Part shown: positions 11,269 to 51,559 of the stretch, in pieces
Position numbering within the stretch: position 1 is the first letter of the stretch
How the letters are laid out: the number at the start of each line of letters is the position of its first letter
Position numbers and translations under genes: made by a program
From: Candidatus Omnitrophota bacterium
GTDB taxonomy: Bacteria; Omnitrophota; Gorgyraeia; Zapsychrales; JBAZNR01
Direction of reading: 5' to 3'
Assembly: GCA_041649175.1 (NCBI GenBank)
Contig: JBAZNR010000001.1
Coordinates: 71,461-135,460 of the forward strand
DNA length: 64,000 bases
Notes under the pieces: model-generated
The model's input: the letters and a program-made list of their open reading frames with translations, nothing else
What the model was told of the DNA's origin: nothing
Databases searched by the model: none

Positions 11269-11270
11269 TT

Positions 11271-30133: not shown

Positions 30134-31162
30134 TTAGATCTCTACCCTTCTTAGGAATTCCGCCGTCTTTTCCGGCGGAATTGAACAAATATAAAATCCG
30201 GTACCTTTTTCAAATCCGGCTACATGCGTTAAGCGAGGCATCACTTCAATGTGCCAATGATAATCTCCTTCAATGGTGTTCCACTCGGTGCTTTTTGATT
30301 TTCCTCGTCGAAACGGTGCTGAATGGATCACGTAATTGTAGGCCGGGTCATTTAATCCTATTTTTAATTTCTGTAAGACTTTTTTCATCATTTCGGCTAA
30401 ATCATATTCAAATCCAATGATCCCTTTGGAAAAATCACAACTATGTTTCTTGGGTAAGATCCATAGCTCGAACGGAAATCTGGCGGCAAAAGGCGAAATA
30501 GCCAAAAAATGGTCGGATTCTAAAACCACTCTGGCTTTAGACTCAAGTTCCTGCTTAATGAGATCGCAATAAACGCATCGTTCGTGGTAAGAGAAATACC
30601 GTCGAGCTCCGACCAATTCTTCTTTAACGCGCATCGGATTAACGGGAGTGGCGATGATCTGAGAACGCGTGTGGCGGATATTTCCTCCGCCGGCTGACCA
30701 TCCGTAATTTTTAAACGGCAGGACATATTTAAAACGCGGATCCTTTTCCAGATCGTTGATGCGCACAACATATGTTTCAAAAACAAGCTTGATCTGCGCG
30801 GCATCTAGATCAGCCATATTGGCAATGTGTTCGGGGGTTTCAATGATAACCTCATGTGCCCCGACATTATCCATCACATCATAAAGCCCATGGCCGCGGC
30901 GCTGAAGATTGCCTTCGATCTTTAAAGCCGGAGCTATGTTAGGGACAACACGGACTTTCCAGTGAGGACTGTTGGGCGCAAAATGGCTTCTGACCGCGTA
31001 AATCTCGGGGGGAGTTTTTGACTCTTTATGTTCGCAAAATGGGCATTCACCTTCATCGATGGTTTTATGATTAGAATCGATGAAGGTTCCCGGCCGACGG
31101 GCTCGTTCCGTGGAAACAATGATCCATCGTCCGATTATAGGGTCTTTGCGTAGTTCTGGCAT
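30134..31162 (-). CDS. GalT-family HIT protein (paralogue B, nucleophile motif altered)
   Basis: CPFCEH zinc motif; FKNYGWSAGGGNIRHTRSQ has only one His where HxH is expected. Directly abuts paralogue A. Confidence 0.75.
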   Translation of the reverse strand: MPELRKDPIIGRWIIVSTERARRPGTFIDSNHKTIDEGECPFCEHKESKTPPEIYAVRSHFAPNSPHWKVRVVPNIAPALKIEGNLQRRGHGLYDVMDNVGAHEVIIETPEHIANMADLDAAQIKLVFETYVVRINDLEKDPRFKYVLPFKNYGWSAGGGNIRHTRSQIIATPVNPMRVKEELVGARRYFSYHERCVYCDLIKQELESKARVVLESDHFLAISPFAARFPFELWILPKKHSCDFSKGIIGFEYDLAEMMKKVLQKLKIGLNDPAYNYVIHSAPFRRGKSKSTEWNTIEGDYHWHIEVMPRLTHVAGFEKGTGFYICSIPPEKTAEFLRRVEI

Positions 31163-34024: not shown

Positions 34025-35109
34025 ATGATGAGTTTAATAATATCGCTGGTCGCAAAGGGACGCGCCAGACTTTTGGTTCGCCCTTTCGCAGAGAGAAGAT
34101 ATTCCGGATTAGAGCTGAGTTTTTTTAATTCGGCGATAACATCCTTTAGCTGAGTACTGCTGCTGCCGATCCCATAACTGCGCAAGACCAAAACATTGTT
34201 CATTTCCTGCCCCGGAATAGGGCAAATTAAAATAAGAGGAAGTTTGCTAACTAACGCCTCGCAAATGGATAAGCCGCCGGGCTTTGTCACCATAACATCG
34301 GCAACTGCCATTAATTCATTCATATTATTGACCAGGCCGAATACTTTAACGCCCGGAAGATTTTTTTTGCTCAAGCGTTCAAATAATTCCTGATTTCGCC
34401 CGCATACCACAAGCACCTGGTAATCACAAAGCGCTTGCGCGATCTCTTCTAAGGGGCCCATCCCAAAAGAGCCCGTCGCTAATAAAACGGTAAAAACACC
34501 TTTTTTGATCTGTAGTTTATCTTTAAGTGCCTCGCGGTCAGGATGATTTGAGAATTTATCATCCGTCGGGATCCCCGTCACAAAGATCTTTTCTCGCTCA
34601 ACGCCTAATTCCAAAAGTTTGTTTTGAGTATATTCGCAGGCTACCGCGTACTTGTCAACTCCATCAGCTAACCAAATTCTGTGCGCGTCAAAATCCGTCA
34701 CCACGCAGATGATCTTTGATTTGATCAAGCCTTGTTTTTTTAAAGAGCTTGCAACTTCATGAGGGAAAAAATGAGTTGATACGATGTAATCAAATTGCTC
34801 CGCAATGAGAAAGCGGTTCAACTTCTTGGCATTGATCTCATTAAAGATCCGTCGTGACGCTCTTACAAAGGATTGCATGCACGGCAGGTCCGTTAACCAA
34901 AAAACAAATCCCCAGGCCCAAGGAAATTTGGTAACAAGAATAGTGTATGTTTTCTGATAAGAGTTCTTATAAAATTGGCTGGTATAATCCAAGGCATCGG
35001 CAAAAACAACTTGCGGACCACCGGGTGAGGCTTTAAGAAGATTGGCGACAGCTTCAGCAGCTTTAGTGTGCCCTGCTCCCGCAGCAGCATGAATGGCAAG
35101 TATTTTCAT
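34021..35109 (-). CDS. GT28-family glycosyltransferase (MGDG synthase/UgtP/MurG-like)
   Basis: MKILAIHAAAGAGHTKAAEAVANLL N-terminus plus a C-terminal GT-B domain. Confidence 0.65.
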   Translation of the reverse strand: MKILAIHAAAGAGHTKAAEAVANLLKASPGGPQVVFADALDYTSQFYKNSYQKTYTILVTKFPWAWGFVFWLTDLPCMQSFVRASRRIFNEINAKKLNRFLIAEQFDYIVSTHFFPHEVASSLKKQGLIKSKIICVVTDFDAHRIWLADGVDKYAVACEYTQNKLLELGVEREKIFVTGIPTDDKFSNHPDREALKDKLQIKKGVFTVLLATGSFGMGPLEEIAQALCDYQVLVVCGRNQELFERLSKKNLPGVKVFGLVNNMNELMAVADVMVTKPGGLSICEALVSKLPLILICPIPGQEMNNVLVLRSYGIGSSSTQLKDVIAELKKLSSNPEYLLSAKGRTKSLARPFATSDIIKLII

Positions 35110-35653
35110 TGAGAATAATCCTGGTTGCTTCCAAAAGGTTTTTAACCGTGTAATCGGGCTTGACGCCTAGTTTTTTCATTTCTCGTCGGTGGTCAATACC
35201 CGATAAAACAAGGATCGTTTTTAATCCCGCGTTGCGCCCGGCTTGCATATCAAAGTGAGCATCCCCGACAAAGAAACTTTTGTCGGCACTGCGGATATCC
35301 TTGTTGATCATTCCAAATGCACGTTTAATGGAGCCGATCTTGGGCTTACGGCAATCGCAATTTTGTTCGGAGGTATGCGTACAATAAAATATCTTTTTAA
35401 TTCGGCCGCCTGTTTTCTTAATTTCTTTAAGCATATGTGCGGTGATCTGATCAAGCTTAGCCTTTGTATAGACGCCACGGGCAACGCCGGCTTGATTAGA
35501 AACAATAAAGATCATATATCCGGCATCAGTTAAATCTTTGATAGCCTTTAAAGCCCCTGGAATAAAATGGAAATCCTTCACCTTCGTCACATATTTTCCA
35601 AGCCCGGGAAATTTATTAATAACGCCATCTCTATCTAAAAAAATGATTTTCAT
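35063..35653 (-). CDS. gmhB: D-glycero-D-manno-heptose 1,7-bisphosphate phosphatase (HAD-IIIA)
   Basis: MKIIFLDRDGVIN...SNQAGVARG...GDAHFDMQAG...CDCRKPK zinc site. Confidence 0.75.
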   Translation of the reverse strand: MKIIFLDRDGVINKFPGLGKYVTKVKDFHFIPGALKAIKDLTDAGYMIFIVSNQAGVARGVYTKAKLDQITAHMLKEIKKTGGRIKKIFYCTHTSEQNCDCRKPKIGSIKRAFGMINKDIRSADKSFFVGDAHFDMQAGRNAGLKTILVLSGIDHRREMKKLGVKPDYTVKNLLEATRIILNENTCHSCCCGSRAH

Positions 35654-39487: not shown

Positions 39488-40606
39488 CTAACCTTTCGAA
39501 TGATAAACTTCACCATAAACTTTTAATGTCTCTTCGGCTGTTTTCAAAAAAGAAAAATCTTTTGCCCGCACCCTTGCTTTTTGCTGAAGGTTTTCTTTTA
39601 AGCGTTGATCACCGATAGTCTGGGCCATCGCATCCGCGATGGCCCGAGGATCCATAGGATCTACGGTTAAAGCAGCACCGCCAGCAATTTCCGGGCAAGA
39701 AGACACATTAGACGTAATAACCGCCGCGCCGCAACTAAACGCTTCCACAATAGGAAATCCAAAACCTTCATAGAGAGATGGAAAAACAAATACTTCCGCT
39801 AAATTATAAAGATATCTAAGTTCTTCGTCGGTCAAATAGCCCAAAAAGACTACATCATTTTTTAGTTTCAGATGATCAACGAAATAATAAATACTTTCAT
39901 TCATCCAGCCTGACATTCCGGCAATCACCAGCTTTCCGTTAAATTGTTTCTTTTCCTTAAGAAAGAAAAAAGCGCGAATAAGATTGTTAAGATTTTTTCT
40001 AGGTTCAATGGTCCCGACAAAAAATATGAACGGATCGCTGATCCCCTTTTCTTCGATCACCTTTTTTGCTTTTTGCCTTTGTTCGCTATCAAGAGGGTAA
40101 AAAATATTCTTATCAACACCTTGATGGACCATGCAAATCTTACTTTTATCAACAGAAAAATAACGCTCTAGATCATCCATGGTGCTTTGCGAGCAACAGA
40201 TGATCTTTGAGGCCTTTAAAACAGCTTCGTGAATATGGCGATCTGTTATTTCAATGGTGCTCTGCGTATGACTTTGTGGAAAGGCCTTATAAATAAGATC
40301 ATGGACGGTAACAACAATTTTGGCTTTCTCGATCGGAAGACTGTCGGGGCTGGGTGAATGATAAATATCAATGGCGCCTAAAGTCTCTTGAAGGCCACGA
40401 TTGAACCGGTCGATCTTAACAGAGAAATTCTTTTGGGTAAAAACGGGGGTCTTTCTTTTTGTGTCGAAGAGTTTCTTTTGAACGTAAAGCAGATATTCGT
40501 TTTGAGGATCGATCTGGCTTAAAGTATTCACCAGATTGTGCGCATAGCGGCCGATGCCGGTATATTTCTTATTTAAAAAGGAGCGGCAGTTGATCGCCAC
40601 GCGCAT
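39488..40606 (-). CDS. GT4-family glycosyltransferase
   Basis: EGFGFPIVEAFSCGAAVITSNVSSCPEIAG. Confidence 0.8.
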   Translation of the reverse strand: MRVAINCRSFLNKKYTGIGRYAHNLVNTLSQIDPQNEYLLYVQKKLFDTKRKTPVFTQKNFSVKIDRFNRGLQETLGAIDIYHSPSPDSLPIEKAKIVVTVHDLIYKAFPQSHTQSTIEITDRHIHEAVLKASKIICCSQSTMDDLERYFSVDKSKICMVHQGVDKNIFYPLDSEQRQKAKKVIEEKGISDPFIFFVGTIEPRKNLNNLIRAFFFLKEKKQFNGKLVIAGMSGWMNESIYYFVDHLKLKNDVVFLGYLTDEELRYLYNLAEVFVFPSLYEGFGFPIVEAFSCGAAVITSNVSSCPEIAGGAALTVDPMDPRAIADAMAQTIGDQRLKENLQQKARVRAKDFSFLKTAEETLKVYGEVYHSKG

Positions 40607-40610
40607 ACGG

Positions 40611-41753
40611 CTATTTTCCTTTTGATTTTAGGAATTTTTTAATTACTTCGATGACATATTTAAGATTTTCAATGCCTAAATCTTGGTGAACACCGATATG
40701 AAAACCATAATTGCCGAAATATTCAGCCTGAGGAAAATCACCCAATTTATAGCCTAAGAATTTATACCCCGGACATTGGGTCGGCATGGAATAAAAAAGA
40801 TTGCGGGAATCAATTCCGGCTTTATCAATATACGCGACAATTTCATCTCTGGTAAATGGCGCTTCTTCCGTTAAAGTCACCGGAAAAGCATGCGGCCCAA
40901 GCTTCTCATAGGGCTCTTCTTGAATAGAAAAAAGATAACGGTCAAATTGCTTGAAATTCTCGATAAGAAATTTCATATTCCGACGGCGCTTAGCGAGGAT
41001 CTTCGAAAATATCTTTATATTGCCCAGCCCAACAGCCGCTTCGATCTCATTCATTTTCGAAGAAAATCCCACGCGCTTAAAAACAAATTTATGTTCCATG
41101 CCGTGATTGCGCAGTGACCTTAAAATTCCCGCCAAACGGCTGTCATTGGTTGTGATGATCCCGCCTTCAATGGTCGTAACAATGTGCGCCGCATAAAGGC
41201 TAAACGCCGCCATATCCCCAATTGAGCCTATCAATTGGCCGCGATACTCGGCTCCATGAGCCTCCGCGGCATCTTCGATAACGAAAAGTTTATATTTCTT
41301 AGCGAGCGCCATGATCTTGCCCATGTCAGCGGGTTTTCCCATCAAATGAACCGGCATAATAGCTCTTGTCTTGGGCGTGATCGCGGCTTCGATTTTTTCG
41401 GGATTAATATTAAGTGTTTTTCGCTCAACATCCACAAAAACCGGATTAAATCCCGCGTTTAAAACAGCATTGCCGGTGGCTATAAAAGATAGCGCCGGAA
41501 TAATGACCTCATCTCCTCGTTTGGCTCCAAAATCATAAAGTGTCGCCAAAGCTAAAGTATCGGCGTCGGTTCCACTACTGACCGCAACGGCTTCTTTGAC
41601 GCCGAAAAGTTTCGCGAATTTTTCTTCAAAAGAGCGAACGTATTGCCCTTGCGTCACCCACTTTGTTTTTAAAGCTTTGTCGATAAGTTTACGTGCATCA
41701 CTGGTGACCGAAACAGTTCCGAAAGGAACTCGATAATTTGTTTTATGCGCCAT
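40611..41753 (-). CDS. DegT/DnrJ/EryC1/StrS-family sugar aminotransferase
   Basis: VSSGTDADTLALATLYDFGAKRGDEVIIPALSFIATGNAV...AAFSLYAAHIVTTIEGG. Confidence 0.8.
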   Translation of the reverse strand: MAHKTNYRVPFGTVSVTSDARKLIDKALKTKWVTQGQYVRSFEEKFAKLFGVKEAVAVSSGTDADTLALATLYDFGAKRGDEVIIPALSFIATGNAVLNAGFNPVFVDVERKTLNINPEKIEAAITPKTRAIMPVHLMGKPADMGKIMALAKKYKLFVIEDAAEAHGAEYRGQLIGSIGDMAAFSLYAAHIVTTIEGGIITTNDSRLAGILRSLRNHGMEHKFVFKRVGFSSKMNEIEAAVGLGNIKIFSKILAKRRRNMKFLIENFKQFDRYLFSIQEEPYEKLGPHAFPVTLTEEAPFTRDEIVAYIDKAGIDSRNLFYSMPTQCPGYKFLGYKLGDFPQAEYFGNYGFHIGVHQDLGIENLKYVIEVIKKFLKSKGK

Positions 41754-42468
41754 GGATACCTGCTTTTCTTAGGAATTGTTGTACTTGGTTATAACGTTCG
41801 GGGGTCCCAATATCGATAAATTCCCCTTTGGCCATATAGGCGAAAAATTCTTCACCGATCAGCTTCGGGAAAAAATCATATTCAATGGAAAATTGTTCGC
41901 TTGTTTTCACAGAAGAGAAGATGTTCTTGTTCAAACAATACGTCCCGGTGTTTACGTAAGCGGATTTACCGGAGGCTATTTTTTCCTTAAAAGCTAAGAT
42001 CCGATTGTTGTGATCAAATTCAATGGTCCCAAAATCACCGCTTTCCAGAACCTTATTAACGGCAATCGTTGCTACAGCTTTATGGCTTTCATGAAACTTG
42101 GCCAGATCCTTGTACTCTAAAGTGCAAAAACAATCCCCGTTCATGGCGATAAAATGTTCGCTTTGAACAAGCGATGCTCCCTTTTTGATAGCACCGCCTG
42201 TCCCCAGGGGGCTTTCTTCTCGAGAAAAAACAATATCTAAATGTTGAAATGTTTTTTTAAAATACGCTTCAATGACATCAGCGCCGTATCCGGTGCATAA
42301 AATAAACCGCTTCCCGCCTTGCGCGGCAATATAGTCGATCAGGACATTTAAAAATGGTTTTCCGTTAACCTCGGCAAGAACCTTGGGCGCATCGCCTGTC
42401 ACAGAGCGCAGGCGCTTTCCCAGTCCACCGCAAAGAATAACAAAATCTATTTTTGATAAATTGTTCAC
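41743..42468 (-). CDS. hddC: sugar-1-phosphate nucleotidyltransferase (HddC-like, D-glycero-D-manno-heptose-1-P guanylyltransferase suspected)
   Basis: IDFVILCGGLGKRLRSVTGDAPKVLAEVNGKPFL. It lies next to the GHMP heptose kinase and gmhB. Confidence 0.65.
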   Translation of the reverse strand: MNNLSKIDFVILCGGLGKRLRSVTGDAPKVLAEVNGKPFLNVLIDYIAAQGGKRFILCTGYGADVIEAYFKKTFQHLDIVFSREESPLGTGGAIKKGASLVQSEHFIAMNGDCFCTLEYKDLAKFHESHKAVATIAVNKVLESGDFGTIEFDHNNRILAFKEKIASGKSAYVNTGTYCLNKNIFSSVKTSEQFSIEYDFFPKLIGEEFFAYMAKGEFIDIGTPERYNQVQQFLRKAGIHGA

Positions 42469-42479
42469 AGGAAAGTTTT

Positions 42480-43484
42480 TTAGCGAACCTTGCCGCTATC
42501 GGGCTGATAGAAGATGATCTGACTTCCTAAGCTTTCAAAGCGAAAAGGAATTTCTAAATATTTCTTTAGCTTTTCTCGGATCTTTTTTTGTTTTTCAGGC
42601 TGTGCGAACAGAAGAACGAAGCCGCCGCCGCCAGCGCCTAATAATTTTCCACCCAAAGCCCCTGCCCGGCGAGCTGTATTGTATAATTCATCAATTTGAG
42701 GAGTGGTGATCTTATCGGAAAGGCTGCGCTTCAATTTCCAGCTTTCATGAAGAAGTTTTCCGAAACGCGAAAGATCTTTTCCCTCCACAATATCAAACGC
42801 CTCTTTGACCATCTCTTGCATGGCCCCCAGCTCTTTTCTTTTACTAGGGATATTTTTTATTTGATGTTCGGCGATCTCGGAGGCCATCCGCGAAAATCCC
42901 GTAAAAAACATCATCAAATGATCTTGCAAAGACTGCAGCCGTTCTTGCGGAATAGTGATCTTTCGGACAGACAAGTGACTGCTTCCGCCAAATTCAATAT
43001 AGTTAAATCCGCCATAAGCCGCTAATGTTTGATCTTGGCATCCGACATTTTCTTTGCATTTTTTCTGCTCGATATAGATCGCCTCTTTGGCTAAACGCTC
43101 TTTGGTCGGCATGGTTCCTTTAAGAGCATACAAGGCATTCAGAAGCCCAACGGTAAACGATGAGCTGGAACCGAGTCCAGTGCGCGCCGGTAAATCACCG
43201 TCGTGATGGATTTCGATCCCTTCTTTGATCTTTAAGAATTTTAAAACTTCACGAACCGCCGGATGGCGAATATCTTCAGTTTCCTGAATATGTTCAATCA
43301 CAGAATAAATAATGCGGGATTTGTGCTCAAAAAATGGCGGTAAATGGCGGCATGTAATATAACAATATTTATCAATGGTGGTCGCTAAAACAGCGCCTTT
43401 ATTTTCCTTGAACCAATCAGGATAATCGGTGCCGCCGCCAAAAAAAGAAACACGAAAAGGTGTCCGGCTAATGATCATACACAA
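42480..43484 (-). CDS. hddA: GHMP-family sugar kinase (HddA-like, D-glycero-D-manno-heptose-7-P kinase)
   Basis: ISRTPFRVSFFGGGTDYPDW...PARTGLGSSSSF (GHMP motif II). Confidence 0.7.
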   Translation of the reverse strand: MCMIISRTPFRVSFFGGGTDYPDWFKENKGAVLATTIDKYCYITCRHLPPFFEHKSRIIYSVIEHIQETEDIRHPAVREVLKFLKIKEGIEIHHDGDLPARTGLGSSSSFTVGLLNALYALKGTMPTKERLAKEAIYIEQKKCKENVGCQDQTLAAYGGFNYIEFGGSSHLSVRKITIPQERLQSLQDHLMMFFTGFSRMASEIAEHQIKNIPSKRKELGAMQEMVKEAFDIVEGKDLSRFGKLLHESWKLKRSLSDKITTPQIDELYNTARRAGALGGKLLGAGGGGFVLLFAQPEKQKKIREKLKKYLEIPFRFESLGSQIIFYQPDSGKVR

Positions 43485-44986
43485 ACCCTTTCTTCAAGAA
43501 TTTTACGGCGTAATTTTATTTTGGTTGATTTTAACGTTTCGTCGACGGCTGTTTGTCCAAATTTGTCTTTGAGTAAAGCGAGAAATTTTGGGTTGGTATG
43601 GTAAGTATGCCACGCTTTATCACGAAATTCCAAAACCTGTTCGGCGCTTAAATATTTTGTCGGCAAAGGCTGGCACGCATAAGAATGTTGGGAAAATCCC
43701 GCGTATGTATCAGGCAATTTCCACCCTTCTTTCTTGGCAATTCCATATAAAGGGCTGCCCGGATAAGCCATGGCAGAGTAAAAGTTCGCCATTTCCGTAT
43801 TAAGCTCAAGGGCTAGGTCAAGTGTCGCTTGCATGGTTTCAAGATTATCCTCGGGAAGTCCAAAAATATAATTCGCGGCAACATTGATGCCGTGATCGCG
43901 GATCTTTTTGACAATACCTCGGATATCAACATCTTCGAACCGCCCCTTAGTGACATCTTTTCTTACCTTAGTATTGCCGCTTTCAATGCCGAGTGCCAGA
44001 TAATTAATGCCGGCTTTTTTAAGAGTTTCCAAATACTGTTCTTTGACCGTATCAATACGCGAATAACACCAAATATTAAACTGATAATCACGCTCAATAA
44101 GCAGTTCACATAAACGCATAAAATGATTCGTGTTTAAAACAAAAAGTTCGTCAGCGATCTTAATATTTCGAATGCCAAGTGTTTGCAGTTTATCAAATTC
44201 CTTAACAATGAATTCCGGATCCCAATACCTAAAAACCGCGCTTCCATCGGAATATTCATTTTCCTGCCGATTGATGATGTTGATCATGCAAAAAGAACAT
44301 TTCATCGGGCAACCCAAGCTCGTATAGATCGCCCCGAAAGGTTCCCGGTCGGCGCTATTAGGAAGCGAGTGCCAAAGCGCCGTGCGATATCTGGACATAG
44401 ATAATTTATCCCAGGCAACGCCGGGCAATTCAGTTGCCAGATCTTCCTTGGACACGATCGGCGACGGGCTATTAAGAACGATTTTCCCATCTTGACGATA
44501 CCCTAGCCCAAGAACTTGGTCCAACTTATCTTCCAAATTAGTTTTAAGAAGATTGGAAATAGTGTAGACGCCTTCATTCTGGCAAACCATATCAATATAG
44601 GGATGTTTTTCAAGGACTTCGCGCGATAAAGCGCTGACATGCCCGCCGACAAAAAGTATTTTGATTTCCGGAGAATTTTTCTTGAGCTCTTCCGCTAAAG
44701 AAACAGCCCCATCCATATTTTGCGAACTGGCGCTGGGTTGTTGCCCGTAAACAACAAAACAGGCAACCTTGGGGTTAAAACCTTTGATCATCATCGCCGC
44801 GTGAAAATCATCCAGGCGCAAGGCTTCACAGTCTAAAATCTCGGCGCTAAACCCTTTTTTAAGGCAATGATTGGCTAACATCCCCGCCCAAATAGGCGGC
44901 TCAATGGCGGAATAATATTTGCTAAGCCCCTGATAAATTTTCTCGGAGGCATTAGGCTGGATAAAAAGAATATCGAGTTGCTTCAT
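43475..44986 (-). CDS. B12-binding radical SAM enzyme (class B; methyltransferase-like)
   Basis: N-terminal Rossmann-like B12-binding domain (ILFIQPNA...EILDCEA); TSLGCPMKCSFCMI CxxxCxxC; 503 aa. Confidence 0.8.
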   Translation of the reverse strand: MKQLDILFIQPNASEKIYQGLSKYYSAIEPPIWAGMLANHCLKKGFSAEILDCEALRLDDFHAAMMIKGFNPKVACFVVYGQQPSASSQNMDGAVSLAEELKKNSPEIKILFVGGHVSALSREVLEKHPYIDMVCQNEGVYTISNLLKTNLEDKLDQVLGLGYRQDGKIVLNSPSPIVSKEDLATELPGVAWDKLSMSRYRTALWHSLPNSADREPFGAIYTSLGCPMKCSFCMINIINRQENEYSDGSAVFRYWDPEFIVKEFDKLQTLGIRNIKIADELFVLNTNHFMRLCELLIERDYQFNIWCYSRIDTVKEQYLETLKKAGINYLALGIESGNTKVRKDVTKGRFEDVDIRGIVKKIRDHGINVAANYIFGLPEDNLETMQATLDLALELNTEMANFYSAMAYPGSPLYGIAKKEGWKLPDTYAGFSQHSYACQPLPTKYLSAEQVLEFRDKAWHTYHTNPKFLALLKDKFGQTAVDETLKSTKIKLRRKILEERVCV

Positions 44987-44998
44987 GAATTAAAAACC

Positions 44999-45931
44999 TT
45001 ATATATTGGCGTATTGGTTACGTTTGATGACCTGATAACCCTTAATAAGCTCTTGAATACCTTTAGAGATCGAAACATCCGGTTTAAAACCGGTTTTTTC
45101 GATCTTTTCGTTACTGACGATGTAATCACGTTTATCGGGATCTTCGCCTATTTTAGATTCAACAAAATAGAATTCCTTAACATGTTTCTTGATCTCTTCG
45201 CAAAGTTCTAATTTACTTAAATTCGCATCACTTAAGCCAACATTGTAAGGCTCATTTTTCATCTTGTCAAAATTGTTAAGTGAATGGATAAAGGCTTTAG
45301 TGATATCGCGCACATGAATATAGTTACGCTTAAAATGGGCTTCGAATAAAACGACAAAACGGTCAAAAACCGCGCGATAAACAAAATCATTCACCAGTAA
45401 ATCCAAGCGCATGCGCGGACTAACGCCAAAGGCCGTTGCTAAACGCAATGTAATTCCATGGCCGGAATTAAGGATCGTTTCTTCTGCCTGAACTTTAAGC
45501 TTTCCATATAAAGAAACAGGACGAAGCGGAGTTTGCTCGGTGCAAAACTTTCCTTTTTCTCCGATGCCATAACCGCTATTGGTCGTCGGAAAAATAAGGA
45601 TTTGATTTTTACTTGTCATGTCGACGATCGTTTTAACGGCATCCGCTAAAATAGTTTGCGCACCAACGGGGTCTTTGGCGCATAACGGCGCGCCTGTCAA
45701 GCAGGCCAAGGGGAAAATAGCGTCAGATTGCTTAACCAATTTCTCCATTAAATTCTTATCGCGCGTATCACCGCGAATGATCGTTAAATTGTCGCTATGA
45801 CAACAATCTAAAAGCGACGGTTGATTATACATAAAATTATCCAAGGCAATGACTTGATGATTTTCCTTGAGCAAGGCCGGTGTTAAAACCGAGCCGATGT
45901 ACCCCGCTGCGCCTGTTACCAAGATTTTCAT
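44999..45931 (-). CDS. NAD-dependent nucleotide-sugar epimerase/dehydratase (SDR)
   Basis: MKILVTGAAGYIGSVL...YGKLKVQAE (YxxxK). Start at MKILVTG, making an ATGA overlap with the fcl stop; the longer ORF runs to 45967. Confidence 0.75.
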   Translation of the reverse strand: MKILVTGAAGYIGSVLTPALLKENHQVIALDNFMYNQPSLLDCCHSDNLTIIRGDTRDKNLMEKLVKQSDAIFPLACLTGAPLCAKDPVGAQTILADAVKTIVDMTSKNQILIFPTTNSGYGIGEKGKFCTEQTPLRPVSLYGKLKVQAEETILNSGHGITLRLATAFGVSPRMRLDLLVNDFVYRAVFDRFVVLFEAHFKRNYIHVRDITKAFIHSLNNFDKMKNEPYNVGLSDANLSKLELCEEIKKHVKEFYFVESKIGEDPDKRDYIVSNEKIEKTGFKPDVSISKGIQELIKGYQVIKRNQYANI

Positions 45932-46872
45932 TTTTTTAACTCCGCTGTTTTTTGTTTTAAATACCAATCGTATGTTTTTGTGATGCCTTCTTTTAAATCG
46001 ACCTTTGGTTTCCAGCCTAATTTTTCAATCTTTTGATTATCCAACAATTTACGCATCGTTCCATCGGGCTTCGTCTTGTCAAAAATAATCTCCCCTTTAA
46101 ACCCGGATATATCCGCGATCAACGAAGCTAGCTCTTTGATGGAAACATCTCTCCCGCAACCAATATTGATCGGCTCCTCATCTTTGTATTTTTCCATTAA
46201 AAATAAACAGCTTTCAACAAAATCATCCGCGTAAATAAATTCCCGTTGTGGTTTTCCCGTCCCCCAGACTACAACGCTTTTTTCATTACGCAATTTGGCT
46301 TCGGTAAATTTCCCGATGAGCGCCCCAATAACATGCGCTGTTTCTTGATTGGCATCACTTCCGGGGCCGTAAATCGTCGCTGGAATTGCAACGATCGCGT
46401 CAAATTTGTATTGCCGCTGATAAGCTTGACAAAGCTTTATTCCGGCGATCTTGGCCACCGAATAGGCTTCACTCGTTTCTTCCAGGGGTCCTGTTAACAA
46501 ATATTTTTCTTTGATGGGCTGTAAACTTTCTTTAGGGTAAACGCAAGAGCCAGCCAAAAACAAAAGCTTTTTAACTCCAAAAGTATACGCCGCATGAACG
46601 ATATTGTTCTGAGCTTCTAGATTTTCGTAAATAAATTCGGCGGAAAATTTTTGATTAGCGGCAATTCCACCGGAACGCACCGAGCCCAAGAAAACATATT
46701 CCGGCCTTTTTTCTTCAAAGAACTTTTTTACGTTTGCCTGATTTAAAACATCCCACCCGATCATCCCGGATAAAAAAACATGATCAAATCCCTGTCGGGC
46801 AAAATACGACCCTAAGGAGTTTTCAATAACGTCTTGATGGCCGATAACTAGGATTTTACTACTTTTTTGCAT
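45928..46872 (-). CDS. fcl: GDP-L-fucose synthase (GDP-4-keto-6-deoxy-D-mannose 3,5-epimerase/4-reductase)
   Basis: KILVIGHQDVIENSLGSY...LFLAGSCVYPK...YSVAKIAG is the typical Fcl/WcaG signature. Confidence 0.8.
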   Translation of the reverse strand: MQKSSKILVIGHQDVIENSLGSYFARQGFDHVFLSGMIGWDVLNQANVKKFFEEKRPEYVFLGSVRSGGIAANQKFSAEFIYENLEAQNNIVHAAYTFGVKKLLFLAGSCVYPKESLQPIKEKYLLTGPLEETSEAYSVAKIAGIKLCQAYQRQYKFDAIVAIPATIYGPGSDANQETAHVIGALIGKFTEAKLRNEKSVVVWGTGKPQREFIYADDFVESCLFLMEKYKDEEPINIGCGRDVSIKELASLIADISGFKGEIIFDKTKPDGTMRKLLDNQKIEKLGWKPKVDLKEGITKTYDWYLKQKTAELKK

Positions 46873-46875
46873 GAA

Positions 46876-47412
46876 CTACTTTTGATTATAGAAGTTTCCG
46901 TGTTCTATCAGAAGAGTGGATTTATTATCTTTGCGCTCAAAGGCATGTTTGTAGGCCGGAAAAATATCTTCCGGTTCATTGAGCTCAACAACATCAATGG
47001 TGGTAAACATTTTTCTAAAGGCATCCGCGTAGTTTCCGACGTGCTGATGGCCGGGATGCACGGGGCTATCGGGTCCGGTTGCCACCCGAATTAAGACTTT
47101 AGGAATCAACTGATTAGCGCTGATCGCCGGTATTTTATCCAGCATATTGACCATATCTGAAACCGCAATGAGCAGAAAATTTTGCCGCGGATAAACCGAG
47201 ATAGGAATATACCCCGCTAGGGATAATCCGATCGTAAATTGCATTTGAAAACTTTCATTGATCGGCATTTCTAAAGTCCGCTCGGGCGATACATCGCGAA
47301 GCGTTTGGAACATAAAAGTCCCTGGCCCGGCAACAGTTTGCCCGACAAAAATAGACTTAGGCTGCTGGGCCAACCATTCCATCGTGCGTTTTAATTCGTC
47401 AAAATATTTCAT
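46876..47412 (-). CDS. thiamine-diphosphate enzyme, pyrimidine-binding subunit (E1-beta / transketolase C-section-like, minimal)
   Basis: 178 aa; Pyr-domain-like; lacks the C-terminal TK_C domain of canonical E1-beta. Confidence 0.6.
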   Translation of the reverse strand: MKYFDELKRTMEWLAQQPKSIFVGQTVAGPGTFMFQTLRDVSPERTLEMPINESFQMQFTIGLSLAGYIPISVYPRQNFLLIAVSDMVNMLDKIPAISANQLIPKVLIRVATGPDSPVHPGHQHVGNYADAFRKMFTTIDVVELNEPEDIFPAYKHAFERKDNKSTLLIEHGNFYNQK

Positions 47413-47413
47413 A

Positions 47414-48025
47414 TTAAAATTTAATGAGTTTTCCTAGCCCAGAATGCGGATAACCGTTTAGATATTTAAAATAGATGATCTTGGATTCAAATTTTGTATC
47501 TTTAAACCACGGCTCAGCGCAATTCCAGACTTCTCTGGTTTTTGTCATAACGCTAAGCCCATTATCGCAAACAATGAATTTAACCGGCAGGTCAAAGTGG
47601 ACGGCGTATTTCACCGATTCGTGAAAAATCCCCGTTTCAGCTGACATATCACCGCAAAAAATGTAGGCTTTTCCTTTTTTTCCTTGGCGTTTTAAAGCCC
47701 ATGCAACGCCGACCGCTGTTCCTAAAAGGCTTCCGACAATACCTGAACAGAGAATTTTCTGCCCCGGAAAACACAAAGAAATGCTTTTGCCTTCCTGAAT
47801 AGCCTTCTTAAGCTCTTCGCGCCCAACCCCTTTTAGAAGAGCCAGTTCGTGAGAATCCCAGAAGCCGAAGACATAGTCATCCGAGCCAATGGCATTTTCC
47901 TTAAAAATCCGGATGAGCTCGTCTTCCCGCCCGGCACGTAAATGGACAGGAGCCCGAATACTGCCAGTGGCAAAAATGTCGGCTATTTCCTTCTCAAAGC
48001 TGATGATTTCTTCTTTGGTAACCAT
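47414..48025 (-). CDS. thiamine-diphosphate enzyme, PP-binding subunit (E1-alpha-like, minimal)
   Basis: CGDMSAETGIFHESVKYAVHFDLPVKFIVCDNGLSV matches the GDG-X25-30-NN TPP motif and aligns with E1-alpha GDGA...FVCENNQYAM. The printed sequence has an extra C at 48000/48001 relative to the ORF track. Confidence 0.65.
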   Translation of the reverse strand: MVTKEEIISFEKEIADIFATGSIRAPVHLRAGREDELIRIFKENAIGSDDYVFGFWDSHELALLKGVGREELKKAIQEGKSISLCFPGQKILCSGIVGSLLGTAVGVAWALKRQGKKGKAYIFCGDMSAETGIFHESVKYAVHFDLPVKFIVCDNGLSVMTKTREVWNCAEPWFKDTKFESKIIYFKYLNGYPHSGLGKLIKF

Positions 48026-48293: not shown

Positions 48294-49925
48294 CTACTGG
48301 GCTAGTTTTTCTAAAATAACATCCGCCAACCGATCAGCGATCAGCTGATTACCCTTACGCGTACAATGCCCAAAATCTCCGGCAAATTGATCCACAAAAT
48401 ACTCATCATAACGCCCTGTTTTTAAGGCTTTCTCAAATACTTCTTTATTTTCAACAAAGATTATATTACGTTTCTGACCTAACATTTCCTTCAACGGCAG
48501 GATATCGCGCAAAGGATACTGCATACAGATCAGTTTCACCCTACTGCGTAAAATGCGGTCGACAATGTCGAGATAATGTTTGACGGTGAATGAATTATAC
48601 GTCCGAGAAGATGTCACTTTGCTTTTTTCGGCATATTCTTTGGCTAAATCGGATTTTCCTTGTCTTTCGTAACATCGAATCAAATATTCATAAAGACGCA
48701 CATCTTTGGGATTCAGCGCGATCGCTTTTAAATAAAGGCTTTCTGCTTTCGCATATTGCTGTTCCTCCTCGTAAAGAGAACCGAGCTGTTGATAGACCCA
48801 GTGATTTTGCGGATTGATCTCAAGAGACCTCAAGAAAGCTTCTTTAGCTTGGGCGTTTTGCCCCTGAATCTTTAGCCATTGGCCCATTTCGCCGTACGCC
48901 CAAAAGTTATTTGGATCTATTTTTAGTAAATCGCGATAAACCACAATGGCCTTTTCATGATTTCCCACTTCGTTATTGCATCGGCCTAATTCAAGGCGAG
49001 CCCAAAATAATTCCGGATCAAGCGCGATCGCTTTTTCAAAGACCGTTATTGCTTGATCAAATTTTCTTTGAACCTTATAACAACGGCCCAAGCCCGCATA
49101 GGCAACCGCATCTTGCGGGCTGATCTCGATCGCTTTTTGATAAGCACTTTCAGACTGGAGGAATTCTTCACGCTCCCGATGCCAGCGCCCTAACTCTGAA
49201 TAAAGATCTCCCAGGGCAAGATTAAGCTTCTGCTCTTGTTCTTGCGCTTTCTCAACACCTGCCAAATTTCCGCGTTTTTCATAAGCCTTTTTGATCTCTT
49301 GAATTAATTGATGGTTCTTTGTTATCTGCGTTATTTGGAAACGAATGACCGCGATCTCTTTAACTGGCACAACATCTTCCGGAATGTCGGAATATTGCTT
49401 TGGCCTCGTCTTAAATCCAAATCTAATTTTATGAGATACGTGCAATGCGAGAAGCTTGGCAAGTTTATAAACACGCAGGTCTCCCGCAAGAGAACGAATT
49501 GGTGCTTTTCTGTCCTGGCCGGCAAGGCCGTCATATTTGTCATCATTGATCCCCATCATCACAATGACTGCCTGCGGTTTGTACTTGGCCAAATTGGCTT
49601 CGAGCTGCGCGGCGATATCGCCCGAGTCTTTAGCCGGAAGTCCCTTATTGATAATTTTAAATTTAATTTTTCTGCTTCTTTCATTGAGAGTTTCTTCAAG
49701 CAAAAAAGGATAGGCATATTCTCCGCCTAAGGCTGTTGTTGATTCTCCTAAGCATAAAATACGATATTCGCTGTCACCTTGAAGAGAAATCTTATTTGAC
49801 CGCTCCTGCAGATAAAAGAATGCCGCGCCGCTTAAGCGCAATCCTGACTCCAAAAGAATAACGGATAAAGCTAGGCCTAAAAAAATGAGGGATATTTTCT
49901 GGATCAATGTTGTTTTCATGATCAT
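48294..49925 (-). CDS. membrane-anchored SGNH/GDSL-family hydrolase interrupted by a TPR-repeat domain (paralogue 1)
   Basis: N-terminal TM anchor; block I ILCLGESTT (Ser nucleophile); block III MMGINDD; about 280 aa of TPR repeats (AYAGLGRCY, WARLELGRC, WAYGEMGQW, WVYQQLGSLY...); C-terminal block V DFGHCT (DxxH). Confidence 0.7.
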   Translation of the reverse strand: MIMKTTLIQKISLIFLGLALSVILLESGLRLSGAAFFYLQERSNKISLQGDSEYRILCLGESTTALGGEYAYPFLLEETLNERSRKIKFKIINKGLPAKDSGDIAAQLEANLAKYKPQAVIVMMGINDDKYDGLAGQDRKAPIRSLAGDLRVYKLAKLLALHVSHKIRFGFKTRPKQYSDIPEDVVPVKEIAVIRFQITQITKNHQLIQEIKKAYEKRGNLAGVEKAQEQEQKLNLALGDLYSELGRWHREREEFLQSESAYQKAIEISPQDAVAYAGLGRCYKVQRKFDQAITVFEKAIALDPELFWARLELGRCNNEVGNHEKAIVVYRDLLKIDPNNFWAYGEMGQWLKIQGQNAQAKEAFLRSLEINPQNHWVYQQLGSLYEEEQQYAKAESLYLKAIALNPKDVRLYEYLIRCYERQGKSDLAKEYAEKSKVTSSRTYNSFTVKHYLDIVDRILRSRVKLICMQYPLRDILPLKEMLGQKRNIIFVENKEVFEKALKTGRYDEYFVDQFAGDFGHCTRKGNQLIADRLADVILEKLAQ

Positions 49926-49939
49926 AAAAGCGCTTTAAC

Positions 49940-51559
49940 TTATTTAATATTTTTTAGTATGGCTTTAGAAATATTTTCAGCCAATAATTTATTTCCCTGG
50001 GCCGTGCAATGGCCAAAATCACCGGCAAAACGATCGTAGAAATACTGGTCATATCCGTTTTTGTTAACAGCGTCCTGAAAAACTGCCCGATTATCAACAA
50101 AAATAATTCCCGTGGAAGATAGATCTTTTCTCAATAGCGCAATATCGCGCAAAGGATACTGAGCGCAGATAAGCTTTATTCCTTTTTTAAGGACAATTTC
50201 TTTTAATTGTTGGTAGTTGGACATCGTTGGAGAATCATGTTTGACCAGCCTTTTCTGCCGTAAATTGATCAATTGGTTTGCCAAATCTTTCTTTCCCTGA
50301 GACTCATAATAGGAAGCCAGCCGCGCATAGATATCGGCCGACGAACCGGAAAACTGCCCGGACGTTAACCTCAAAAAAAGATCCTGAAAAACTTTTTGCG
50401 CTTCTTCCGGTTTATTATTTTCCTGCAAAATAAAACCTAGTTCCAAAATCCAGACCGGAACCTGTACAGATTCGGGATTAGCATCAATGGCTTTTTTAAA
50501 TAAATCCTCCAGGAGATCTTCTTTGGCGTTTTTCCGATAACAATAGGCTATCTTGCCGTAAACCCAAACATTTTCAGGATTAGTTTCCAGTTGTTTTTGG
50601 TACATCAGTTCTGCTTCATGATATCTTTGCTGTTCTAAATAAACATCGGCCAAATTACCGTAAATCTCTAAATTATCCGGAACAACAGCCAAGATCCGCT
50701 TATAAAGATTTTCGGCTTGAGAATATTTCGCCTGCATTTTATAGCAGTTTGCTAATTGATACGTTGCCACGAACTGATGTTCATCCGAGAGCTTTCCCAA
50801 TTCGATGACTTTTTTAAACGCGTCTTCACCTTTTTTGTAATCCGCCCATTCACGATAATAAAGGCCTAAATAAAAGTAGGCTTGCGCATTATTGCCATCC
50901 AGCTCGATTGCTCTTAAATAAGCTTCTTTCTCCTTGTCGAACTTTTGGACCATTTTATACATACGCCCTAATTCCATGTATTTTTCTGATGATGGAGACA
51001 GAGAGATCTTTTTTTCAAAATCTTTGACTTTTCTCTCCAATGTTTCCATAATCAATTCCTCTTTTTTGTGCTCCGCATGAGACCAGATCAACCTAGCCAA
51101 CTTATAAACCTTCAATCCATCCAAGAAAGACCTCTGCAGATTTTTCTCTTGAGCTTTAAATCGCAAGGTATCCGAAGAGTCATTAATGCCCATCATCGTA
51201 ACGATCATCTTTGGATGATATTCGTCGATCCAGGTTTCCAAATACGAAACGATATCGTATGTATTCATCGCCGGGACACCTTTATTGATAACGGAAAAAC
51301 GAACGGAAGGATTTTTGGCATTGAGGATTTCTTCTAATTGCCGAGGATACGCGTGCGCGCCGCCCAAAGCCGTGGTAGATTCTCCCAGACAAAGGATCCG
51401 GTATTCTCCGTTGCCGCAGGCAGAAGCACGGTTAAGGCTTTCCTGAAAGAACAGAAAAGCAAATCCGCCGATCCTTAAAGCTATTTCAAGGAAAGCAATA
51501 GCTAAGAAAAGGCCGAAACATATAAGGAATAACTTTTGTCTTAAAGTAGTTTGAGGCAT
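49940..51559 (-). CDS. membrane-anchored SGNH/GDSL-family hydrolase interrupted by a TPR-repeat domain (paralogue 2)
   Basis: Same architecture: YRILCLGESTTALGG, MMGINDS, central TPR repeats, FAGDFGHCTAQGN. The catalytic segments are about 55% identical to paralogue 1. Confidence 0.7.
   Translation of the reverse strand: MPQTTLRQKLFLICFGLFLAIAFLEIALRIGGFAFLFFQESLNRASACGNGEYRILCLGESTTALGGAHAYPRQLEEILNAKNPSVRFSVINKGVPAMNTYDIVSYLETWIDEYHPKMIVTMMGINDSSDTLRFKAQEKNLQRSFLDGLKVYKLARLIWSHAEHKKEELIMETLERKVKDFEKKISLSPSSEKYMELGRMYKMVQKFDKEKEAYLRAIELDGNNAQAYFYLGLYYREWADYKKGEDAFKKVIELGKLSDEHQFVATYQLANCYKMQAKYSQAENLYKRILAVVPDNLEIYGNLADVYLEQQRYHEAELMYQKQLETNPENVWVYGKIAYCYRKNAKEDLLEDLFKKAIDANPESVQVPVWILELGFILQENNKPEEAQKVFQDLFLRLTSGQFSGSSADIYARLASYYESQGKKDLANQLINLRQKRLVKHDSPTMSNYQQLKEIVLKKGIKLICAQYPLRDIALLRKDLSSTGIIFVDNRAVFQDAVNKNGYDQYFYDRFAGDFGHCTAQGNKLLAENISKAILKNIK

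Follow-up and report, generated by a model that had tools for sequence, protein, structure and literature searches.

The 64,000-nucleotide stretch of a Candidatus Omnitrophota genome that was analyzed here (assembly GCA_041649175.1, contig JBAZNR010000001.1, positions 71,461 to 135,460), referred to below as the window, carries on its minus strand two neighboring short genes whose products together make up a minimal, split thiamine diphosphate (ThDP) enzyme. This enzyme is derived from the E1 component of the 2-oxoacid dehydrogenases and consists of a pyrophosphate-binding (PP) domain and a pyrimidine-binding (Pyr) domain only. The two genes are as follows.

47414–48025, minus strand: E1α-like PP-domain subunit of a minimal ThDP enzyme, 203 amino acids (aa) (Pfam, NCBIfam, PDB, and AlphaFold2 (AF2)/Foldseek)
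46876–47412, minus strand: E1β-like Pyr-domain subunit, 178 aa (Transket_pyr, NCBIfam E1β, alignment with 1um9_B, and AF2/Foldseek)

A single base separates the stop codon of the α gene from the ATG of the β gene, and the pair constitutes the first genes of a tightly packed minus-strand operon. Upstream of this operon, promoter-like sites were found to be fewer than expected by chance, and there was no Rfam match, indicating that no regulatory RNA is located there.

Domain Architecture and Cofactor Residues

A preliminary description of this DNA, made by reading the sequence, had proposed a split E1α/E1β-type ThDP enzyme with subunits far shorter than the canonical ones and without a TK_C domain. 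The open reading frames (ORFs), the Pfam and NCBIfam searches, the PDB comparisons, and the AF2 models all agree with this proposal. The α subunit scored 43.5 bits against Pfam E1_dh (gathering score 22), with the match confined to positions 9–175 of the 300 positions of the profile, and 56 bits against the NCBIfam models of the pyruvate dehydrogenase (PDH) E1-alpha subunit; a match to TPP_enzyme_C (22.8 bits) was marginal. Its best PDB sequence match was the PDH E1α chain 1w85_A (2e-6), and the split transketolase 6YAK/6YAJ gave a weak match (2e-5). The β subunit scored 21.5 bits against Transket_pyr, under the gathering score of 27, and 33.7 bits against an NCBIfam PDH E1-beta subfamily model, and its best PDB sequence match was the 2-oxoacid dehydrogenase E1β chain 1um9_B (2.8e-5). 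In the Pfam scan, neither subunit showed a TPP_enzyme_N or TPP_enzyme_M domain, and no match to Transketolase_C was obtained for the 178-aa β subunit.

The structure predictions point in the same direction. For the AF2 model of the α subunit (predicted local distance difference test score (pLDDT) 87, predicted TM score (pTM) 0.87), the top 50 Foldseek matches in the PDB were all E1α chains, with TM scores of 0.72–0.80 on the query and 0.42–0.46 on the target. The top matches of the β model (pLDDT 69) were E1β chains (TM score ~0.75 on the query and ~0.43 on the target), followed by DXS and split transketolase, and the model spans only ~43% of the E1β chains.

The residues expected to bind and activate the cofactor are intact in both subunits. 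The Mg-ThDP motif of the α subunit, which had been described earlier as GDG...N, reads GDM-X26-DN (G125-D126-M127-X26-D154-N155) when aligned to the motif of 1w85_A; within the α family, neither G125 nor N155 varies, and conservation of D126 is at least 90%. In the β subunit, the cofactor-activating Glu is E53 (PINES aligned to PLSEA of 1um9_B), and Q123-H124 fall in the stretch of E1β that contains the catalytic His (GHQH aligned to GHHHSQ). Among 76–80 orthologues, H28, H59, G125, E130, D154, N155, and H194 of the α subunit and E53, Q123, and H124 of the β subunit are each at least 95% conserved. The possibility, also raised at the outset, that the ThDP-binding residues might be lacking is at odds with the conservation of GDM...DN, E53, and H124.

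Both subunits are about half the size of their canonical E1 counterparts, the missing parts being the C-terminal half of E1α and the whole C-terminal domain of E1β. In 1W85, it is this C-terminal domain of E1β that binds the peripheral-subunit-binding domain of E2. Moreover, no E2 or E3 gene was detected in the Pfam scan of the window, which covered almost every ORF of 120 aa or more, or among the recurrent neighbors in 56 loci. Because the E2-binding domain of β and the C-terminal half of α are absent and no E2 or E3 gene lies nearby, the pair is not a component of a dehydrogenase complex.

Size, Distribution, and Variants of the Family

Relatives of both subunits were found in the hundreds as full-length proteins with 78–88% identity and nearly invariant lengths (203/178 aa). 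An exhaustive search of 50%-identity cluster representatives yielded 1,503 relatives, 300 of them at E ≤ 1e-10 and most of them ~200 aa long and 35–50% identical, and a search started from the Herbaspirillum homologue yielded at least 7,900 clusters (90% identity). The pair is carried by Omnitrophota, Nitrospirota, Burkholderiales, Verrucomicrobiota, Planctomycetota, Elusimicrobia, and Acidobacteriota, and furthermore by SAR11, SAR116, bacteria of the candidate phyla radiation (CPR), Woesearchaeota, and Methanosarcinales, with the α and β genes directly adjacent in 70 of 77 loci; this adjacency and the hundreds of full-length relatives go well beyond coincidence. Among Omnitrophota, E1β is the most conserved protein of the region (88% in locus L001, compared with 62% for LptD). 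A second clade of E1α-like proteins (P0391–P0510) shows 82–91% identity between Herbaspirillum and Massilia (Betaproteobacteria) on the one hand and Nitrospira (Nitrospirota) on the other, a level that indicates strong constraint together with horizontal transfer and, as judged from these sequences, implies a recent transfer of the cassette across phyla.

Several variants bear on how the two subunits work. Natural α–β fusions of ~400 aa, with E1_dh followed by Transket_pyr, were identified (P0272, P0364, and P0370), and both halves therefore act as one PP + Pyr enzyme. P0328 (552 aa) carries at its N terminus an APH-type phosphotransferase domain fused to the E1α-like part, a hint of a functional tie to a kinase step. 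Two E1α-like proteins contain inteins, namely P0283 (550 aa; Intein_splicing/Hint) and P0269 (553 aa; LAGLIDADG domain). The junction between the α and β genes is interrupted in several Omnitrophota genomes: a toxin–antitoxin pair of the MNT/HepT (nucleotidyltransferase/HEPN) type lies between the subunit genes in loci L005/L006 (L005 10633–11252) and L014 (7836–8452; 80% identity), and other inserts of 0.3–3.3 kb occupy the junction in L013, L015, and L020.

The only relatives encoded on plasmids were classical full-length pdhA genes with ~30% identity over residues 9–175, which sets the family clearly apart from the housekeeping E1. No family-specific model was found in NCBIfam or Pfam, no characterized member was found in literature searches, and the source annotations of family members read "thiamine pyrophosphate-dependent enzyme," "PDH E1 alpha," or "hypothetical protein." Names assigned by JGI, such as "pyruvate dehydrogenase E1 component alpha subunit," would, like the ~30% identity to classical pdhA, fit a degenerate remnant or pseudogene pair left by the E1 of a housekeeping pyruvate or acetoin dehydrogenase. 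Such an origin carries practically no probability in view of the invariant subunit lengths, the identity maintained over hundreds of contigs, the conservation of the catalytic residues, and a location that is always in a glycan operon and never beside E2/E3; the conservation pattern effectively refutes it.

Gene Content of the Surrounding Cassette

Downstream of the pair, the operon in the window continues with the following genes, the last of which lies at some distance from the others.

45928–46872, minus strand: Fcl-like GDP-4-keto-sugar epimerase/reductase (NF047922, 380 bits, cutoff 500)
44999–45967, minus strand: short-chain dehydrogenase/reductase (SDR), probable Cj1427-type GDP-heptose C4-dehydrogenase (match to PDB 6VO6/6VO8)
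43475–44986, minus strand: radical S-adenosylmethionine (SAM) enzyme with a B12-binding domain, 503 aa (Pfam B12-binding and Radical_SAM)
42480–43484, minus strand: HddA-like GHMP sugar kinase, heptose-7-phosphate to heptose-1,7-bisphosphate (NF049969 HddA, the best NCBIfam model)
41743–42468, minus strand: HddC-like sugar-1-phosphate nucleotidyltransferase, probably GDP-forming (NF049965 HddC, the best model)
40611–41753, minus strand: DegT-family protein with His190 in place of the Lys that binds pyridoxal phosphate (PLP), predicted ColD/E1-type C3-dehydratase (alignment to 3bn1)
39488–40606, minus strand: GT4 glycosyltransferase directly downstream of the preceding genes (Pfam Glycos_transf_1/Glyco_transf_4)
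35063–35653, minus strand: haloacid dehalogenase (HAD)-type phosphatase, possible GmhB (heptose-1,7-bisphosphate 7-phosphatase) (Pfam Hydrolase_like/PNK3P/HAD_2)

The HddA-like kinase scored 144 bits against NF049969 (cutoff 600), and the HddC-like nucleotidyltransferase scored 166 bits against NF049965 (cutoff 300), compared with 148 bits against a mannose-1-phosphate guanylyltransferase model. The Fcl-like protein matched the GDP-fucose synthases 8du0 and 1bsv with 264–282 bits and the Campylobacter jejuni heptose C4-reductase MlghC (7ANH) with 261 bits; it could act as a C4 reductase/epimerase or as a reductase of a branch ketone, and is an optional member of the cassette. Orthologues of the GT4 glycosyltransferase (46–60% identity) follow the cassette in Omnitrophota loci, making this enzyme a candidate transferase for the modified sugar in the Omnitrophota arrangement only. 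Between the GT4 and the HAD phosphatase genes, the operon contains genes for a GT2, a GT9 heptosyltransferase, a second DegT protein, and another GT2. Homologues of the HAD phosphatase (27–37% identity) lie inside the cassette in other phyla, for example at 14674–15258 in L042, and the assignment as GmhB is, on this sequence similarity, tentative. A sugar isomerase (SIS) gene corresponding to GmhA was not found in the window.

The window proteins were compared with 86 loci, the locus scan being built on a 10-sequence alignment, as a 45-sequence alignment was too diverse. Partners were counted in the 22 loci from outside Omnitrophota that had flanks of 8 kb or more on either side, a partner being a gene no more than 8 kb from the E1α gene, and, for some partners, in eight Omnitrophota loci.

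E1β-like subunit: 22 of 22 non-Omnitrophota loci
HddA-like kinase: 21 of 22; 8 of 8 Omnitrophota loci
Cj1427-like SDR: 18 of 22; 8 of 8 Omnitrophota loci
DegT protein of the His type: 17 of 22
Radical SAM enzyme: 16 of 22
Nucleotidyltransferase: 16 of 22; 7 of 8 Omnitrophota loci
Fcl-like protein: 12 of 22; 8 of 8 Omnitrophota loci

The HddA-like kinases are 54–60% identical in most of the proteobacterial, Verrucomicrobiota, and Nitrospira loci and 38–49% identical in SAR11 and a few others. Gene order differs from that in Omnitrophota—in Nitrospira and Herbaspirillum, for instance, it is radical SAM enzyme, kinase, Fcl-like, E1α, E1β, DegT, nucleotidyltransferase, SIS, SDR, and HAD—and it is thus the gene content that is conserved, rather than an inherited synteny. 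Unbiased clustering of the neighboring ORFs revealed as further recurrent families only SIS (GmhA-like, in seven loci), HAD (GmhB-like), NUDIX, and RmlC-like epimerase; our own ORF calling produced antisense shadow ORFs in high-GC loci, and clusters of unannotated neighbors are accordingly read with caution. Genes for GmhA (SIS) and HAD are present in the cassette of Herbaspirillum and about 5–7 other loci, and in the operon of the cultured Herbaspirillum, the GmhA, HddA-like, GmhB-like, and HddC-like genes occur together with the pair.

The B12-radical SAM enzyme, which the preliminary description had overlooked, is, next to β, the partner retained most persistently in minimal and archaeal loci, and its orthologues, with 44–50% identity, adjoin the α and β genes in bacterial and archaeal loci alike. 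In six Verrucomicrobiota loci, an ORF of ~260–330 aa without a Pfam match directly follows the radical SAM gene (for example, L031 13790–14665, L057 13699–14697, and L040 10355–11143) and may encode an additional component of the pathway.

Partner Enzymes and the Acceptor Sugar

The cassette SDR is similar over its full length to PDB 6VO6/6VO8 (408 bits, E 2e-121, ~65% identity), which we take to be the C. jejuni GDP-heptose C4-dehydrogenase Cj1427; the name given by the depositor is generic. Its sequence shows the motif TTNSGYG, and the acid pair of the 4,6-dehydratases is missing. An assignment as a 4,6-dehydratase was rejected on the basis of this missing acid/base pair and of the score against 6VO6/6VO8.

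The DegT protein aligned best to GDP-perosamine synthase 3bn1, in which FGNK stands opposite YAAH of the window protein, placing H190 at the position of the Schiff-base Lys. All 55 DegT partners in the cassettes (55/55) have His in the column of the PLP-binding Lys, and they fall into two lineages, one with YAAHI (Omnitrophota, perosamine synthase-like) and one with YYAHHM (elsewhere, ColD-like), which are only ~30% identical to each other. The Herbaspirillum-type DegT is closest to ColD (2gms), its His aligning to the ColD His. Judging from these sequences, the His-type DegT is probably a sugar C3-dehydratase of the ColD type that depends on PLP or pyridoxamine phosphate (PMP), and not an aminotransferase; the alternative of an aminotransferase giving rise to an amino sugar was discarded because Lys is replaced by His in every one of these partners. 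The two lineages were compared using the window protein (40611–41753), the L042 protein (11218–12387), and those of 53 other loci, and the change from Lys to His in both possibly reflects independent recruitment or convergence.

Cj1427 and a C3-dehydratase were reported to convert GDP-heptose into GDP-D-glycero-4-keto-3-deoxy-heptose in vitro (PMC10680097). The conserved partners are likely genes for GDP-D-glycero-D-manno-heptose. Because these heptose genes are accompanied by a probable Cj1427-type C4-dehydrogenase and a ColD-like C3-dehydratase, the acceptor of the ThDP enzyme is likely GDP-4-keto-3-deoxy-heptose. It had been proposed earlier that the acceptor is the intermediate made by Gmd and consumed by Fcl, GDP-4-keto-6-deoxymannose. 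This acceptor is unlikely, since there is no gmd gene in the 64-kb window, and only 12 of the 22 well-flanked non-Omnitrophota loci have an Fcl-like gene, so that Fcl is an optional partner; a GDP-mannose/Gmd/Fcl scaffold was rejected on these grounds. A keto-sugar as such is still the most economical acceptor, given that the conserved partners make one, and the branching chemistry suggested along with it is put forward here as a proposal.

For the radical SAM enzyme, the nearest NCBIfam models were HpnJ (160 bits), BchE (119 bits), and AprD4 (88 bits), all under their cutoffs; its best PDB match, and thereby its closest solved relative, was AprD4 (6fd2, 7.5e-18), and the CxxxCxxC motif (C226/C230/C233) is conserved. 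HpnJ, BchE, and AprD4 include no methyltransferase, and the reactions of two of them yield five-membered carbocycles. The enzyme is a candidate for a radical C–C or C–H step on the sugar, such as ring closure, dehydration, or methylation.

Proposed Reaction and Alternatives

By analogy with known ThDP enzymes, we tentatively propose that the pair is a stand-alone carboligase by which a 2-oxoacid-derived C2 unit is attached to GDP-4-keto-3-deoxy-heptose. The architecture, the conserved cofactor residues, the cassette membership, and the Lys-to-His substitution were observed; heptose as the substrate, the nature of the donor, the site of attack, and the sequence of the steps are inferred. The PP and Pyr halves would form one stand-alone heteromeric ThDP enzyme, descended from E1 and stripped of its needs for E2 and lipoate. 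GDP-heptose would be oxidized at C4 by the Cj1427-like SDR and would then lose its 3-OH group through the His-type DegT, giving GDP-4-keto-3-deoxy-heptose. The mini-E1 would decarboxylate a 2-oxoacid—most simply pyruvate, which is suggested as the donor by analogy with E1, YerE, and AviB—to a ThDP-bound acyl-anion equivalent, and the addition of this equivalent to the C4 ketone would yield a C-branched, nine-carbon sugar of the 4-C-acetyl type. The B12-radical SAM enzyme would finish the sugar, together with the Fcl-like reductase/epimerase in loci that have one, and the neighboring glycosyltransferase (GT4) would transfer it into lipopolysaccharide (LPS) or a surface glycan. The lack of an Fcl-like C4 reductase in the compact cassettes L041 and L060 fits the consumption of the 4-keto group by C–C bond formation.

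A transketolase- or DXS-like reaction would differ from this carboligation in that a ketol or hydroxyethyl group would be transferred to or from a sugar phosphate, generating an unusual skeleton before the kinase and nucleotidyltransferase act. Some family members also match DXP_synthase_N (~30 bits), the matches by sequence and fold include split transketolase (6yak/6yaj) and DXS, and the kinase/nucleotidyltransferase logic resembles that of the lincosamide octose and methylerythritol phosphate (MEP)-type pathways. E1α and E1β are nevertheless consistently the best matches by both sequence and fold, and the GmhA, HddA-like, GmhB-like, and HddC-like enzymes of the cassette already provide a complete route from sedoheptulose-7-phosphate, a primary metabolite. 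As, in addition, an anomeric GHMP kinase would make poor use of a 2-ketose product and no recurrent isomerase besides GmhA was found, a reaction of this kind is considered very unlikely.

A second alternative involves no C–C bond formation on the sugar at all: the pair might be a plain 2-oxoacid decarboxylase that supplies an aldehyde or acyl substituent, or a decarboxylase of phosphonopyruvate or sulfopyruvate. Small two-subunit ThDP decarboxylases of the ComDE type do exist, AzcB/AzcC (9u8q) is among the fold matches, and all E1-like enzymes share the decarboxylation half-reaction. The family is characterized, however, by E1_dh and Transket_pyr and not by TPP_enzyme_N/C, and no PEP mutase, phosphonate, or acyl- or aldehyde-handling gene was found in the window or recurrently in 56 other loci. 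A phosphonopyruvate or sulfopyruvate decarboxylase accompanied by PEP mutase, which the preliminary description had named as an outcome that would refute its own reading, is excluded by this E1_dh membership and by the failure to detect PEP mutase or a related family in the scanned ORFs of the 64 kb or among the recurrent neighbors. Furthermore, a plain decarboxylase leaves the tight linkage to keto-sugar-generating enzymes unexplained, and its probability is rated as small indeed.

The proposed carboligation at C4 itself faces several difficulties. Donor, acceptor, and even direction—ligation or cleavage—are deductions, the equation of 6VO6 with Cj1427 is presumptive, and the AF2 model of the β subunit is only moderately confident. 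The archaeal and some CPR loci keep the α and β genes and the radical SAM gene without the heptose, Cj1427-like, and DegT genes, so that one acceptor cannot hold for all loci, and the coupling of the enzyme to the product of the radical SAM enzyme may be closer than its coupling to a 4-keto sugar. The cassette in the window also encodes an Fcl-like enzyme, which would normally need the same 4-keto group. Finally, the known E1-type branch enzymes, as far as they can be compared by their descriptions, are full length (Pau11, 325 aa; Pau12, 345 aa).

In the main alternative, it is the side chain of the heptose that is extended. The radical SAM enzyme would then act as an AprD4-like diol-dehydratase on the C6/C7 diol and create a side-chain carbonyl, to which the mini-E1 would add C2 to give a linear 8/9-deoxy nonose, with the Cj1427-like, DegT-His, and Fcl-like enzymes independently carrying out a colitose-like 3-deoxygenation and C4 reduction. 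Among solved structures, AprD4 comes closest to the radical SAM enzyme, and it is also one of its NCBIfam matches; the α and β genes and the radical SAM gene form the most persistent pairing, including in archaeal loci without Cj1427-like or DegT genes; and an Fcl-like C4 reductase is present in the window and all eight Omnitrophota loci. The similarity to AprD4 is weak, though, with HpnJ and BchE scoring higher in NCBIfam, and the C4 reductase that this route requires is not recognizable in ~10 of the 22 cassettes. To our knowledge, there is no precedent for a ThDP-dependent extension of a heptose side chain, and we regard this route as unlikely.

Within the carboligation at C4, the radical SAM enzyme might close a ring, so that the cassette would make a caryose-type sugar with nine carbons and a carbocyclic or bicyclic skeleton, a rather doubtful extension of the proposal. 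On paper, the carbon atoms add up: a seven-carbon GDP-heptose that is 4-keto and 3-deoxy would receive the pyruvate-derived acetyl group (C8–C9) at C4 from the mini-E1, and the radical SAM enzyme would join C7 to C8 into a five-membered ring, giving the carbon skeleton of 4,8-cyclo-3,9-dideoxy-nonose (caryose). According to a review from 2022, the biosynthetic origin of caryose is unknown, and comparable conversions of sugars to cyclopentanes are attributed to radical SAM enzymes (PMC9092360). The caryose producer Trinickia caryophylli was not among the best 120 of at least 7,900 matches.

Comparison with Known Systems

By sequence and fold, the α2β2 E1 enzymes—PDH, branched-chain 2-oxoacid dehydrogenase (BCKDH), and acetoin dehydrogenase—are the closest to the pair, sharing the PP/Pyr split, the Mg-ThDP motif, the Glu, and the His stretch. 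Identity is only ~30%, however, and a complete E1α of ~320–400 aa has C-terminal loops for reductive acylation and regulation that the pair lacks; the pair, moreover, is found in a glycan-biosynthesis context without E2/E3.

AviB1/AviB2 of avilamycin and Pau11/Pau12 of paulomycin biosynthesis resemble the pair in being two-gene, E1α/E1β-derived ThDP enzymes encoded in a sugar-modification cluster without E2/E3. They have been genetically tied to C4 acetyl branches on deoxysugars, formed by "an unknown mechanism," and the chemistry proposed for them is the addition of a pyruvate-derived C2 unit to a 4-keto sugar (PMC4425429, PMC4753412). The likeness extends to the operon of the pair, in which a probable GDP-heptose C4-dehydrogenase and 3-dehydratase would make a 4-keto sugar. 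The two types are set apart by their described lengths (325/345 aa for Pau11/Pau12 versus 203 + 178 aa) and by their settings, namely actinomycete antibiotic clusters acting on TDP-hexose-derived or already-attached sugars versus LPS-type loci of Gram-negative and environmental bacteria with GDP-heptose.

YerE is the only sugar-branching ThDP enzyme proven biochemically, and the acceptor is a 3-deoxy-4-keto nucleotide sugar, as is also proposed for its relatives ErwE and MyGE (PMC9306805). These enzymes are acetolactate synthase (ALS)-like, partly flavin-containing ThDP carboligases that serve in the formation of branched sugars of the yersiniose, erwiniose, and caryophyllose type; a PMP/PLP-dependent 3-dehydratase supplies the acceptor, a 2-oxoacid serves as the donor, and the reaction gives an acyl-branched tertiary alcohol that is later reduced (PMC9306805). 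By analogy, the pair probably works like the YerE-type enzymes. The two differ in that YerE is a single chain with the domain order Pyr-TH3-PP, belongs to the decarboxylase/ALS family, and uses a CDP-hexose, whereas the pair has separate PP and Pyr subunits, is E1/transketolase-like, and is associated with GDP-heptose.

The partner enzymes, for their part, resemble those of the capsular heptose pathways of C. jejuni, which comprise HddA/HddC, Cj1427/MlghA, the C3-dehydratase of serotype HS:5, and the reductases MlghC/Cj1428. No ThDP or radical SAM enzyme is described for these pathways in PMC10680097, where neither term occurs; the cassette would correspond to a C. jejuni-like heptose modification to which a ThDP enzyme and a radical SAM enzyme are added.

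Two further groups are similar in layout only. ComD/ComE, phosphonopyruvate decarboxylase, and AzcB/AzcC likewise have ~170–200 aa per subunit, one PP and one Pyr domain, and no third domain, but they belong to the TPP_enzyme_N/C family, their similarity to the pair in fold and sequence is marginal, and the pair lacks a coenzyme M context. Split-gene transketolase (6YAK/6YAJ) shares the two-gene PP/Pyr arrangement and the transketolase-like superfamily with the pair, but its C-terminal subunit retains TK_C, its N-terminal subunit is ~300 aa long, and E1 is the better match for the pair throughout.

Other Features of the Window

The preliminary description had placed the pair between fcl and the nucleotide-sugar genes. 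The Fcl-like gene does lie directly downstream, but on the upstream side, two genes for proteins with tetratricopeptide repeats (TPRs) and a GDSL region come first, followed by UXS-like, UGDH-like, and RmlBAC-like genes, UGDH, and LptD.

48294–49925 and 49940–51559, minus strand: two paralogous ~540-aa proteins with an N-terminal GDSL/SGNH-like hydrolase region and many TPRs

These paralogues are inserted between the UXS-like gene and the E1α gene and are mostly absent from other Omnitrophota loci; L007 has a 37% identical relative, and in L001 an asparagine synthase-like gene occupies the position. A role as O-acyl esterases or acyltransferases acting on glycans is conceivable.

Positions 800–23375 of the minus strand are taken up by a separate glycan module that includes a nonulosonic-acid pathway. 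It contains genes for a PseB/Polysacc_synt_2-like dehydratase, DegT enzymes, NeuB, two CMP-sugar synthetase-like proteins, a PseG + GNAT fusion, a HisH/HisF-like pair of the type used for acetamidino groups, a UDP-GlcNAc 2-epimerase, three methyltransferases, and several GT4 glycosyltransferases. Tandem paralogous genes of the GalT/HIT family (galactose-1-phosphate uridylyltransferase-like, DUF4921/DUF4931) are located beside GAPDH at 29120–30133 and 30134–31162 on the minus strand, and the rest of the window consists of housekeeping genes. In or beside the glycan clusters, five ORFs of 315–537 aa had no Pfam match at E ≤ 1e-5.

8687–9634, 9655–11268, 12577–13740, 20086–21240, and 25924–27069, minus strand: ORFs without a Pfam match

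Biological Significance

Branched or extended sugars made by ThDP enzymes are known from a handful of cases, namely the YerE-type enzymes and E1-type pairs of unknown mechanism. The present pair is a much smaller version, comprising PP and Pyr domains only and ~380 aa in total, that is very common in environmental bacteria and unusually strongly constrained. As an architectural variant it is new, with subunits of half the size seen in the known E1-type pairs, and it occurs in a new and very widespread pathway context. The minimal enzyme could serve as a compact biocatalyst for the production of tertiary alcohols.

The findings also bear on annotation. Proteins now named "Pyruvate dehydrogenase E1 alpha" and "hypothetical protein" are likely the two subunits of a mini-E1, and the protein named "DegT aminotransferase" in these loci is likely misannotated as well, being a probable 3-dehydratase.

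Overall, the pair most likely belongs to an uncharacterized, widespread pathway in which a small carbon unit is added to a seven-carbon nucleotide sugar destined for the cell surface. Its association with a cassette of GDP-heptose, C4-dehydrogenase, C3-dehydratase, and B12-radical SAM genes predicts a higher-carbon surface sugar that is likewise uncharacterized and widespread, and the presumed upstream enzymes all have characterized counterparts in C. jejuni. If the caryose interpretation were true, carbocyclic sugars of this type would occur widely on the surfaces of Omnitrophota, Nitrospira, Verrucomicrobiota, SAR11, and other groups, well beyond T. caryophylli.

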